Positions 59,711-62,067 of a stretch of DNA of 64,000 bases are shown piece by piece. The notes beneath the pieces were generated by a model that did not search any database, had not been told where the DNA came from, and saw only the letters and a program-made list of their open reading frames with translations. Position numbers and translations under genes: made by a program. Numbering within the stretch: the stretch's first letter is position 1; each line of letters starts with the position of its first letter. The stretch is from Clostridia bacterium (GTDB lineage Bacteria; Bacillota; Clostridia; CAKSNL01; HGM11501), in the NCBI GenBank assembly GCA_045545475.1, contig JAZQAZ010000019.1:1-64000 (forward strand). Reading direction: 5' to 3'.

Positions 59711-60649
59711 ATGAAAAAATTAGTGGTAGGAATAATAACTTTACTAGCCTTGCTTGCGATTTATACTGTTGGGATTTGTGCCGAACAAAAAACCGTGAAT
59801 GTAGGAGCGTTAAAAGTAGTTGGATACGATTCTCATTCGTTGAACGAGGAAACAAATGCCAGAGGCGAAAAAATTCTGGTAAATAAAATATGCATGAATT
59901 ACGGGGGAAGCATATCAACTCTTTATGACGGTGATATGTATGTCACTTGTCACTATAAGTGGGATTCGTCAAGACCCGAATACACAGCTTCTTACAATCA
60001 TGGAGCAAAGCCTACAACAGAAGACTGTTCGGTATACACAAGTCTCTATACCTTAGGCATATCTTGCTCTAATGTGTCCAGAAAAGACGGAGTATTTGCT
60101 GCAGGTTATACCTGGACGTTCAAGGACAAAGGTTACACCCCTCATATCATCATTGTGGAATGTAACGGACGGGAATATTATTATTCAATTAAGTTTAAAT
60201 ACGGAAGTATTTTGCTTGAAAATTACGCCTATCCGTCTAATTCGAAACTTATTGTTAACGGGAACGAAGTTTCGTGCGGAGCGTATAAGATTATTGGAAA
60301 TAATTATTTTAAAATCCGAGATATTGCACAGATGCTGAAAGGAACCAATGCACAGTTTTCCGTGGAATGGGATGATAATCTTAAGGCTATAAATCTTGTT
60401 TCGGGAGGAATTTACCAAAGTCTTGGTAATGAATTGGCGGCGGTGCCAATCAAAGATAAGAAAACCGCAAAGTTTCCTCCTCCCAGTCTTTACAAAGACG
60501 GTATAGCCGAAGTTGTCAGAAGTTATAATATAGATGGCAGTAATTATTTCAAATTAAGAGATATAGGAATGATTTTTAATTTTTATATCGGCTGGGATGA
60601 AGTTACAAACTGCATTACTATAGACACAACGAAACCTTATACAGAATAA
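59711..60649 (+). CDS. Secreted hypothetical protein with a C-terminal stalk-like domain
   Basis: Signal peptide; duplicated G(N/S)NYFK(I/L)RDI...WD motif at the C-terminus. Confidence 0.65.
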   Translation: MKKLVVGIITLLALLAIYTVGICAEQKTVNVGALKVVGYDSHSLNEETNARGEKILVNKICMNYGGSISTLYDGDMYVTCHYKWDSSRPEYTASYNHGAKPTTEDCSVYTSLYTLGISCSNVSRKDGVFAAGYTWTFKDKGYTPHIIIVECNGREYYYSIKFKYGSILLENYAYPSNSKLIVNGNEVSCGAYKIIGNNYFKIRDIAQMLKGTNAQFSVEWDDNLKAINLVSGGIYQSLGNELAAVPIKDKKTAKFPPPSLYKDGIAEVVRSYNIDGSNYFKLRDIGMIFNFYIGWDEVTNCITIDTTKPYTE

Positions 60650-60683
60650 AAATGTATCCGTTCGAAAGAACGGATACATTTTT
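60648..60683. terminator. Bidirectional intrinsic terminator
   Basis: AAAAATGTATCCGTTC-GAAA-GAACGGATACATTTTT between convergent genes. Confidence 0.88.
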
Positions 60684-61494
60684 ATATTTTGATGCAAAAC
60701 GGCTGTCTTTTTTTGTAGTAATAATATTCTGAGAAACCAATTGCTTTCAGTTTTTCTTTAGTTTCGCTGAAAGCTTTTCCGACATTTTGTGCTATATGAG
60801 CATCGCTGCCTAAGGTTATAAGTCTTCCGCCCATATTATAATACATTTCAACAACATTTAGCGGAGGCATATATTCACTGTAAAATGAGTAAAGTCCGGA
60901 GGTGTTTATTTCAAGGGCGATATTTCTTTTTATGATTGCAAATAAGATTTTTTCAATTATATCCATATGGTTGTTAACGTCAATTCCTTTACCGTATTTG
61001 CCATTAATGTATCTCAGCGGACATGTCAGATGAGCAAGGATGTCAATATCGGAGTTTTCAGCTGTATATAAAACTTCGGACAAATATTTCCTGAAATAAT
61101 TATTGAGAAAGTTCGAAGTAAAACCGGAAAAATCAATCAATGAATAAAAGGTGTTCACATCTTCCATTAAGGTGCAGTGTACCGACCCTATTACAACGTC
61201 AAGGTCGGGGAGGGCGAGGATGCTTTTCGTGTAATCTGAATCAAGGAATCCTTCTGCTAGTTCTACTCCTTTGAAAATGGTGAGTTTATCTCCGTATTTT
61301 GCTCTTGCTGCATCAACAGCTTTATGACTGCTTTTTATTCGCTGATACGCGTTGGTCCTTTTGGAACTTGGTATATCAACGTGATCGGTTATGCATATAC
61401 CGGAAAGTCCTTTCCTTATAGCATAGGAACAAAGACCGTCAAGATCCTGCATGCAGTCATCCGAGTTATCTGTATGGGTATGAGAATCGAACAT
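60682..61494 (-). CDS. HisJ-family histidinol-phosphatase (PHP domain)
   Basis: DSHTH, ITDH, GVE, GSVH, LAH, EINTSG and GSDAH motifs; minus-strand promoter TTGATA-17 bp-TAAAAT at about 61523-61551. Confidence 0.88.
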   Translation of the reverse strand: MFDSHTHTDNSDDCMQDLDGLCSYAIRKGLSGICITDHVDIPSSKRTNAYQRIKSSHKAVDAARAKYGDKLTIFKGVELAEGFLDSDYTKSILALPDLDVVIGSVHCTLMEDVNTFYSLIDFSGFTSNFLNNYFRKYLSEVLYTAENSDIDILAHLTCPLRYINGKYGKGIDVNNHMDIIEKILFAIIKRNIALEINTSGLYSFYSEYMPPLNVVEMYYNMGGRLITLGSDAHIAQNVGKAFSETKEKLKAIGFSEYYYYKKRQPFCIKI

Positions 61495-61555
61495 ATAAAC
61501 GCCACCTTTCTAATGTTGATTTATTTTATCACATTAAGGCTTTTTTATCAAGTTA

Positions 61556-61599
61556 TATTTCGTCTTTACACATTCATTCCAATGATAATCGGAGAGATA
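61556..61599. other. Putative recombination (att-like) site at the sigG breakpoint
   Basis: 21-bp arms flank a central TT (61577-61578) and match as an inverted repeat at 11 of 21 positions, including CATT-nn-TT-nn-AATG. SigG similarity starts exactly here. Confidence 0.5.
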
Positions 61600-62067
61600 A
61601 GGAGGTATTTAAGAGATTATAACACAATTAGAGTGAGTCGCTCTGTAAGGGATCTTGCATATAAAGTGATTGCGGTCAGAGAAAAACTTTCCAACGAAAA
61701 ACAAACTGAAGTCACTAACGAAGATATTGCAAAAGTCCTTGAGGTAGAAAAAAAGGATGTTGATATGGCTCTTGATGCAATCGCTGATCCGGTTTCGATT
61801 TTCGACCCGGTTTATCACGATGGAGGAGATGCAGTATATCTTATGGATCAGATATCCGATGAAAAGAATACGGATGAAAACTGGACGGAATCCATAGCTC
61901 TTTCGGAAGCTATGAAAAAGCTTGGGGAAAGAGAAAAAAAGATATTGAAGCTTCGCTTTTTTGAAGGGAAAACGCAAATGGAAGTGGCTGAAGAAGTGGG
62001 AATAAGCCAAGCTCAGGTGTCGCGTCTCGAAAAGAGTGCGATTGATATTATGAGAAGAAATATTTGA
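61576..62067 (+). CDS. sigG: 3' half of forespore sigma factor SigG (5' part missing; no own RBS or start)
   Basis: PMIIGEIRRYLRD...IRVSRSVRDLAYK...DAIADPVSIFDPVYHDGGD...GKTQMEVAEEVGISQAQVSRLEK matches SigG from region 2.4 to the end. The upstream in-frame sequence is not sigma-like and overlaps the HisJ-family gene and its promoter. Confidence 0.85.
   Translation: MPMIIGEIRRYLRDYNTIRVSRSVRDLAYKVIAVREKLSNEKQTEVTNEDIAKVLEVEKKDVDMALDAIADPVSIFDPVYHDGGDAVYLMDQISDEKNTDENWTESIALSEAMKKLGEREKKILKLRFFEGKTQMEVAEEVGISQAQVSRLEKSAIDIMRRNI

Follow-up and report, generated by a model that had tools for sequence, protein, structure and literature searches.

The 64,000-nucleotide window analyzed here comprises positions 1 to 64,000 of contig C19 in the 50-contig draft genome (G000) of a Clostridia bacterium. 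It contains the 3′ half of sigG, the gene of the forespore sigma factor of sporulation. The 5′ half lies on another contig, C34, behind sigE, and the two broken ends resemble the attachment sites of a large serine recombinase (LSR). Thus sigG is kept in two pieces, and we consider it likely that a dedicated LSR rebuilds it, in a programmed and probably forespore-specific reconstitution. A first-pass annotation of the window had proposed a sigG split at a serine-recombinase-type site. This proposal holds, as the 5′ half exists and no second complete sigG was found. Taken as a whole, the early observation was largely right and reaches further than the sequence alone could reveal; its crossover dinucleotide, TT, was wrong.

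The two halves of sigG

The 3′ half occupies positions 61579 to 62067 of the window on the plus strand (Pro codon CCA at 61579–61581, Met at 61582, stop codon at 62065–62067; 162 residues). Its frame begins P-M-I-I-G-E-I-R-R-Y-L-R-D, is uninterrupted to 62067, and covers the end of region 2.4 followed by regions 3 and 4. The abrupt start of SigG similarity at P-M-I-I-G-E-I and the lack of a stop codon up to 62067, both noticed in the first-pass annotation, were borne out by sequence and frame. The best NCBIfam match was the SigG equivalog NF006071 (profile positions 96–257 of 258, 258.4 bits), with SigF models second. As had also been noticed, the N-terminal part of sigG and spoIIGA-sigE are absent from the window; all three were located on C34.

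The whole G000 assembly yielded eight matches to Sigma70_r2, among which only a short frame next to sigE was a candidate sigG piece. C34 carries spoIIGA (PF03419), sigE (C34:94715–95434), and, 11 nt after sigE, a frame of 99 codons (C34:95446–95745). This 5′ half contributes 97 sigG codons and ends in Q-F-S-T-Y-A-V-P-M-N-V-stop, two codons (NV) past the junction; it is the piece ending in TYAVPM that was to be expected elsewhere in the assembly. It matches positions 1–98 of the 258 in NF006071 with 163.3 bits, again with SigG models first and SigF models second. Together, the two pieces tile the whole SigG profile (1–98 and 96–257 of 258), and each alone remains below the cutoff of 372. When the 3′ half was used as a query against G000, it gave a single match at E ≤ 1e-30, namely itself. 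Thus, no complete sigG was found elsewhere in the assembly, and the split stands.

The 5′ half covers only positions 5–56 of the 71 in Sigma70_r2, and therefore the break lies inside domain sigma-2. This bears on an explanation without DNA recombination, according to which an N-terminal polypeptide of 99 aa and a C-terminal polypeptide of 161 aa assemble on RNA polymerase, while the arms at the break are expression signals (a stop and terminator on one side, a leaderless start on the other). A natural two-subunit sigma factor is known (SigO-RsoA of Bacillus subtilis), and here both halves are intact and under purifying selection. Furthermore, the 3′ half begins with a natural Met, and the 5′ half has its own stop, followed by a hairpin (−26 kcal/mol, z −5.5) with a U run. 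The hairpin was detected by folding and was missed by a simple terminator scan, as its loop is longer than 8 nt. However, a position inside sigma-2 is no domain boundary, no Shine-Dalgarno sequence precedes Met 61582, and the promoter scan of the 85-bp gap upstream of the 3′ half revealed no plus-strand promoter-like site. A two-piece sigma factor would also leave unexplained the co-varying inverted-repeat arms, the LSR that co-occurs with and abuts the site, and the inverted 3′ half beside the LSR in a metagenomic locus (L292), all described below. We regard this explanation as improbable.

The breaks as probable attL and attR sites

The junction on C34 reads ...GCA GTG CC|G ATG AAT GTA TAA AGG CAT GAA AA..., and that on C19 reads ...ATATTTCGTCTTTACACATTCATT CC|A ATG ATA ATC GG.... 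In the window, positions 61555 to 61578 of the plus strand (ATATTTCGTCTTTACACATTCATT) form the P arm of attR, which is the half-site of the recombinase facing away from sigG. This arm is kept across the genus, while the sequence upstream of it differs completely. It is followed by the dinucleotide CC (61579–61580, plus strand), which forms the first two bases of the Pro codon and the center of the P/P′ symmetry, and by the B′ arm on the sigG coding side (61581–61604, plus strand; taken from the table of B and B′ arms). The P arm and the reverse complement of the P′ arm, which follows CC on C34, agree at 16 of 24 positions in G000 and at 15–21 of 24 in all 11 genomes with both junctions. The next 24 nt beyond the arms, used as a control, match at only 3–10 of 24 positions. 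CC is invariant in all 17 attR/attL pairs or singles listed, and the arms co-vary between lineages. They are conserved next to the break, and the outer flanks are unrelated between species. Each junction thus has one sigG-side arm, a central CC, and one arm of about 24 bp, with the non-sigG arms being inverted repeats of each other. Such an architecture is what the attL and attR sites of an LSR display.

Joining the halves at CC gives GTG CCA ATG ATA (V-P-M-I), which is in frame. The symmetry of both loci places the putative crossover at this dinucleotide of the Pro codon. In G000, attL continues after CC with G and attR with A, so that a longer identical overlap is not required. This difference argues against a long overlap of the tyrosine-recombinase type and is consistent with the 2-bp crossover of a serine recombinase. 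The first-pass annotation had taken TT as the crossover, with a Val codon restored at the junction. TT sits two bases to the left of the shared CC, and the join would be GTG CC|A ATG. The palindrome seen at the break is weak inside the window (10 of 21 positions by hand count, essentially TCATT-CC-AATGA); the true inverted-repeat partner is the arm after the 5′ half on C34. When G000 was searched for additional occurrences of the 15-nt core of the arms, the best matches were the two known sites alone, on a background of chance matches (287 with up to three mismatches, versus 153 expected).

Two other ways of joining the halves were rejected. A split intein with protein trans-splicing was dropped because the 5′ half ends two codons after the junction and only the 24-nt arm precedes the 3′ half. 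RNA-level joining via the 21-nt complementarity of the two transcripts was dropped because a DNA recombinase, together with invertible and compact DNA layouts, explains the repeats.

Conservation of the split

The first-pass annotation had considered an assembly chimera at the break. This was excluded: contigs of four public animal-gut metagenome runs bridge the junction of hisJ, arm, and sigG 3′ half at about 99% identity (runs X3 and X4 may be one data set filed twice), and the same break base was found in at least 15 other genomes and 25 metagenome contigs. The more general suspicion that unrelated DNA was joined at 61578 by assembly or binning could point to a draft in 50 contigs. It is already refuted by the independent runs and by the recurrence of the break, and we give it practically no weight.

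All other genus genomes in which a match was obtained share this breakpoint. The 3′ half was detected in 9 of 10 other genus genomes as a short open frame of 165–226 aa; in the remaining one, G010, the 5′ half is present. All eight genus genomes searched for a separate 5′ half have one, with frames of 104–112 aa. In G001, which is 59% complete, neither half was seen, and in G006 the 3′ half is present. Neither the 5′ half nor sigE was found in G013, a draft that is 94% complete, indicating that the locus is missing from this draft.

No stop codon interrupts either half in any of at least 15 genomes. Within the genus, the 3′ half showed a dN/dS of 0.044, based on 10 of 28 pairs, and the 5′ half one of 0.058, based on 25 of 36; the remaining pairs were left out because dS was saturated or below 0.05, and the median dS was about 1.7–1.9. 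Both halves are under strong purifying selection and have been kept long after the split. These data already contradict the view that an old integration or rearrangement destroyed sigG and left the halves and the recombinase as remnants. In favor of such a fossil, many gut Clostridia have lost sporulation, and the halves lie far apart among ordinary genes. Against it stand, besides the dN/dS of about 0.05 at dS above 1.7 and the absence of stops, the conservation of arms, LSR, and a small open reading frame (ORF) across two families, and the presence of spoIIGA, sigE, sigF, spoIIR, and gpr. We consider a fossil very improbable.

Homologues of the 3′ half were also retrieved from a collection of 5.8 billion proteins. 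Among the best 120 listed, all at 76% identity or more are about 161 aa long, and the first full-length homologue stands at 74% identity. In a scan of genome contigs with the 3′ half, the matches listed, which rest on the conserved PMIIGEIR pattern, were relatives at 70% identity or less.

A dedicated large serine recombinase

G000 has eight LSR matches, only one of which has an orthologue across the genus. This sigG-associated LSR of 449 aa (G000 C18:57640–58986) contains the domains Resolvase (PF00239, 1.4e-41), Recombinase (PF07508, 1e-07), and Zn_ribbon_recom (PF13408, 6.9e-10), all above cutoffs. Its catalytic serine S11 in Y-I-R-V-S-T (motif Y-x-R-V-S-T) is invariant across 32 sequences. 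The match to the XisF equivalog NF041201 reached 141.5 bits, below the family cutoff of 375, and therefore the LSR is not an XisF orthologue.

Among 41 relatives, G000, 10 of its 11 congeners, and G013 of the sister genus have the LSR, at 72–91% identity. The LSR was absent from all 28 genomes of other families and from G012, which has an intact sigG and is 65% complete. In a sample of 399 genomes of the class, 17 genomes carry the LSR, 12 of family f1 and 5 of the 8 of family f11. The sigG 3′ half is broken at the same CC in all five LSR-bearing f11 genomes, which have homologous and co-varying arms, and in 10 of the 12 f1 genomes. Full-length sigG frames were found in G023, an f11 genome without the LSR, and in 21 other non-f1 genomes. 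The class-wide survey lists 150 of 306 sigG frames, and among these 150 there are two further short ones: in G377, where an intact gene is broken between contigs, and in G209, where there is a frameshift. The split has become fixed throughout an order-level lineage of gut Clostridia; it is likewise fixed in part of a second family and frequent in gut metagenomes.

The two exceptional frames were inspected. In G377, a genome of another family, the intact sigG extends over two contigs that overlap by 132 nt (the end of C26 at 115941, and C1:1–450); the end of one falls precisely on the CC crossover base, as though the assembly graph had a branch at this point. No LSR orthologue was found in the 22 genomes of this family. 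In G209, an unrelated genome (C198:5000–9500), the frameshift is located in the 5′ part and leaves a frame of 228 aa, which reflects either a sequencing error or a true pseudogene.

A serine recombinase near the split gene, which the first-pass annotation had proposed to look for, was indeed found. It co-occurs with the split, adjoins attR in the sister genus, and is linked to the halves in metagenomes. In G013, the LSR stop codon lies 24 bp before the sigG 3′ half, and the last LSR codons overlap the arm. In G007 and G009, the LSR gene is located 15 kb upstream of attR on the same strand, inside the P side. In G000 itself, it is on the separate contig C18.

Linkage in metagenomes and compact forms

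Scanning metagenome contigs by LSR alignment yielded 80 loci at 50–79% identity, 68 of which were evaluable. At 15 loci, the LSR gene is followed within 200 nt by attR and the 3′ half on the same strand; at 10 loci it is followed by attL and the 5′ half in convergent orientation; and at 13 loci a sigG half is present elsewhere in the locus. Thus, 38 of the 68 evaluable loci tie the LSR family to split sigG. At a further 30 loci, at least 250 nt of downstream sequence is present and contains no sigG half. Ten loci had too little downstream sequence, and at two the end of the LSR gene was outside the locus. The ten convergent loci (L302, L303, L313, L320–L322, L326, L342, L345, and others) place the LSR next to attL and the 5′ half, so the cassette occurs in both polarities relative to CC.

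Three loci carry both halves, with the LSR between them. The halves are in direct orientation in L300 and L332, with 2,553 bp and 2,669 bp, respectively, between the CC cores. In L292, a 2,884-bp segment contains the LSR and, at its far end and on the opposite strand, the 3′ half; inversion of this segment would rebuild sigG. These compact elements of 2.5–2.9 kb contain the LSR gene plus one or two small ORFs. The basic unit is thus a minimal recombinase cassette inserted in sigG, which exists in an excision layout, in an inversion layout, or with far-apart sites as in G000.

A small ORF and a sigmaF-like promoter

In all 17 LSR-bearing genomes, a small ORF of 40–44 codons (M-K-I-E-R-Y-V-x-G-K...) ends at or overlaps the LSR start codon. 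In the cassette with the 449-aa LSR it encodes 40 aa and is translationally coupled. The small ORF belongs to no Pfam or NCBIfam family, and its atlas matches all score below 0.9. A complex model of the small protein with the LSR scored 0.62, compared with 0.01 for the best control, with at least 93% contact agreement between runs and a partner pLDDT of at least 79. The score mark was reached by 58 of 80 solved complexes and by 2 of 110 mismatched pairs, counts that apply here only approximately, since the model was built from our own alignments. The modelled contacts fall on LSR residues 316–334, 406–432, and 441–449. The model supports a putative binding of the small protein to the C-terminal region of the LSR. 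Directionality factors are thought to act on this zinc-ribbon/coiled-coil region, and the small ORF is a candidate recombination directionality factor.

Upstream of the small ORF, at a distance of about 25–30 nt, the pattern G-x-(A/T)-T-A, N14, GG-n-n-A-n-A-n-T is present in 15–16 of the 17 genomes within otherwise unrelated DNA. We take this motif to be the sigmaF consensus. In G000, spoIIR, a sigmaF-dependent gene, is preceded by the same architecture (GTATA-N14-GGGTATACTT). The pattern suggests a sigmaF-like promoter before the cassette, for which the case is good in families f1 and f11 and unproven beyond them. No clear motif was found in the region upstream of gpr, and a genome-wide scan with a loose sigmaF pattern was uninformative, giving 31 mixed matches.

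Chromosomal positions of the halves

In G000, dnaA is located at C34:18850 and the GC skew changes from minus to plus at about 20 kb. The attL site is about 77 kb from oriC and co-directional with replication. In G008, attL is 103 kb from dnaA on the same contig, and in G203 of family f11 the distance is 33 kb. For attR of G000, the distance to the terminus is about 31 kb, given that C19 and the reverse of C8 share a 141-nt overlap and that the skew of C8 flips at about 170 kb. In G007, attR lies 25–30 kb from the skew flip on a 371-kb contig, with the LSR gene about 16 kb further out. In G011 this distance is about 100 kb, and in G008 there is no skew flip within 45 kb. The DNA between the halves has a minimum length of 71.6 kb in G000 and 315 kb in G007, and it contains core genes such as ileS. 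Wherever this could be checked, both halves are co-directional with replication, a pattern compatible with halves in direct orientation on the same replichore and equally with halves in inverted orientation on opposite replichores.

Exact 141-nt overlaps of contig ends in G000 link C19 to C8, but give no useful connection for C34 or for the start of C19. In G151 and G203, the contig ends of interest share no overlaps. Synteny among G007, G000, G008, and G011 is broken into blocks of 5–20 kb and thus offered no way of ordering the contigs into chains. The idea of an inversion symmetric about oriC was abandoned, since the 110 kb left of dnaA in G008 contain no 3′ half. The first 47,074 bp of contig C28 in G151 show a dnaA island (about 11.5–29.5 kb) flanked on both sides by inward-pointing genes, with the 3′ half on the opposite strand. 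This layout could represent an atypical origin region, a rearrangement that occurred recently, or wrongly joined draft sequence.

These positions allow a more specific reading, in which the split is a checkpoint for chromosome delivery. The 5′ half near oriC (77, 103, and 33 kb in G000, G008, and G203) would enter the forespore first and the 3′ half near the terminus (about 31 kb in G000 and 25–30 kb in G007, where the LSR gene is also nearby) would enter last, so that sigG could be assembled only when the whole chromosome is inside. The megabase-scale rearrangement, an inversion or two circles, would be carried in the spore and reversed by the LSR alone at germination. We regard this version as rather unlikely.

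A model of sigG reconstitution

For the reconstitution by a dedicated LSR that we favor, the following course can be proposed. During sporulation, sigmaF-RNA polymerase in the forespore would transcribe the small ORF together with the LSR gene. The small protein would engage the zinc-ribbon/coiled-coil region at the C-terminus of the LSR in the manner of a recombination directionality factor, and the two would recombine attL with attR to yield attB, with an intact sigG behind sigE, and attP. With the forespore as the germ line and all sequenced genomes nevertheless in the split state, the reaction must be undone at germination or spare one copy. At germination, LSR without the small protein might drive attB × attP and so undo the reaction; alternatively, one chromosome copy would have been spared. 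In G000, the event would be a half-chromosome inversion or an excision into two circles, and the small relatives show both topologies. The first-pass annotation had argued that a germ-line gene needs inversion or re-integration. This argument is sound, and L292 is invertible; for G000, the preference for inversion over excision is one of two possible readings, and compact direct loci of the excision type (L300 and L332) exist as well.

Several observations weigh against this model. A joined form (attB/attP) was seen neither among those of the best 120 homologues listed that reach at least 76% identity nor in the contigs of the four runs; contigs drop rare variants, and no search aimed at junction sequences was made. 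The first-pass annotation had suggested mapping reads to find junctions that join the halves, and the contigs (not reads) of the four runs show the split state only. At 30 of the 68 evaluable loci in metagenomes, no sigG half is nearby. The promoter motif, in a loose version, precedes the LSR gene at only 11 of 73 metagenome loci (controls, 1 and 3 of 73), so the promoter reading might not hold generally. Were the small protein a directionality factor that is always produced together with the LSR, the driver of the reverse reaction would be left unexplained. A rearrangement of about half a chromosome in the germ line would be hazardous, and we know of no precedent. In this genus, the halves never share a contig, so the relative orientation of attL and attR is not readable there. 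Finally, the 3′ half of G151 is 17 kb from dnaA, and thus the origin/terminus geometry is not universal.

The missing joined form also bears on a population ON/OFF switch, in which the LSR would flip or excise DNA stochastically in growing cells, and a subpopulation with intact sigG would complete sporulation as a form of bet-hedging. This reading draws on the invertible compact layout of L292 and on phase variation driven by serine recombinases in other systems, and it provides the reverse reaction without a special germination step. A frequent ON state should sometimes assemble, however, and no joined allele appeared among the homologues listed or in the contigs of the four runs. In addition, the conserved sigmaF-like promoter argues for expression inside the forespore, and half-chromosome switching in growing cells would unbalance replication. 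We judge such a switch to be unlikely.

Neighboring genes and other observations

The gene divergent from the 3′ half encodes a PHP-domain (HisJ-like) protein (60682–61494, minus strand; PF02811, E 7.8e-18). It is ordinary chromosomal DNA on the P side, outside any compact mobile element. The first-pass annotation had placed its promoter about 25 bp from the break. This does not apply as written: the start codon is 85 bp away, and the sole promoter-like site in the gap, a sigma-70-like promoter of the HisJ-like gene found by the promoter scan, is located at 61551–61523 on the minus strand. Downstream of the 3′ half are a diaminopimelate-decarboxylase-type gene (lysA) and then an scpA-like frame. 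The window side also encodes galT, the PHP phosphatase, and a tRNA-Ser, which was confirmed at 49–140 on the minus strand. Between galT and the PHP-domain gene, a secreted-looking protein of 312 aa without a Pfam match is encoded at 59711–60649 on the plus strand.

Beyond attL, spoIIAA-spoIIAB-sigF follows in G007 and G009. In G000, the terminator is followed by a PqqD/S24-peptidase cluster, and ileS lies about 6 kb beyond attL. The cluster directly beyond attL (C34:95805–97226, minus strand) encodes an S24-like peptidase, a PqqD-family protein, and a 226-aa protein without a Pfam match, and may be a peptide-maturation (RiPP-type) locus.

Other mobile DNA was noticed in G000. Just after ileS at the contig end, C34:103163–105712 holds another mobile element with two tandem LSR genes, one of which is interrupted by TAG. 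A similar pair of LSRs of 518 and 528 aa is encoded at C37:1723–9660. All of these are unrelated to the sigG LSR. The end of the 6,064-bp contig C7 overlaps its own start by 141 nt, and also C29; it looks like a small circular or tandemly repeated element.

Comparison with known systems

The closest parallel is the skin element. In B. subtilis with SpoIVCA, and in C. difficile with a directionality factor, an LSR rejoins an in-frame split sigma gene, sigK, during sporulation (PMC4191935; PMC5025042). As far as these accounts describe it, that system shares with sigG an in-frame split in a sporulation sigma gene, att inverted repeats with a shared core, an LSR, and a small directionality factor that provides cell-type control. 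In contrast, sigK as presented there is a mother-cell gene, and the rearranged chromosome is discarded, whereas sigG encodes the forespore, and thus germ-line, sigma factor. Unlike skin, the intervening DNA in this genus is ordinary chromosome (ileS, spoIIA operon), reaching from near oriC to near the terminus without a prophage-like island. The cassette promoter also looks like a sigmaF type and not like a sigmaE type.

LSR-mediated reconstitution of sporulation genes has further been described for SPbeta SprA/SprB and spsM, gin and gerE, vfbin and spoVFB, and vrin and spoVR, with gin being a non-prophage element (PMC5595907, PMC5499854). The SPbeta, gin, vfbin, and vrin cases are all described as mother-cell genes and mother-cell-specific events (PMC4191935), and for skin, SPbeta, and gin the products are said to be discarded (PMC4191935, PMC5595907). 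The sigG system resembles this class in that the LSR is encoded within the intervening DNA (G013, G007, G009, L300, L332, and L292). It differs in that G000 and G007 have no discrete, dispensable element; such an element is seen only in the compact metagenomic relatives. These compact sigG elements measure 2.5–2.9 kb, in contrast to the 28.6 kb given for gin in its description. Unlike skin, SPbeta, and gin, the sigG system has an inversion variant.

Restoration of a gene by an LSR in terminal differentiation is also seen with XisF and the fdxN element in Anabaena heterocysts. Heterocysts, in contrast to forespores, are terminal cells, and the sigG LSR is no XisF orthologue. In the active lysogeny of Listeria, reversible excision of phage phi10403S from comK serves as a gene switch and is followed by re-integration. 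There, a host regulatory gene is restored in a cell that has progeny, which is the reversibility that a germ-line sigG switch would need. The comK case differs in that it involves a full prophage, has no tie to sporulation, and spans no chromosome-scale interval.

Full-text searches for a split or interrupted sigG/spoIIIG found none in the literature; the supplementary tables of intervening-element surveys were outside their scope, and a mention there is possible. The accepted rationale for rebuilding genes only in the mother cell is that the mother-cell genome is thrown away (PMC4191935). A conserved and selected split of the forespore sigma factor breaks this mother-cell rule and implies that the germ line undergoes a reversible rearrangement or that the spore keeps a spare copy of the chromosome. 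The identity of the forespore gene and the spoIIR-like cassette promoter, both read from sequence, point away from confinement to the mother cell. The split would also offer a DNA-level answer to the question of how SigG activity is held back until the right moment, and it provides a compact natural set of recombinase, small protein, and att sites that seems to work in either direction and with either topology, excision or inversion. With known intervening elements, the system has in common its enzyme class, site anatomy, and logic; new are the germ-line cell type, the scale and nature of the intervening DNA, and the inversion variant.

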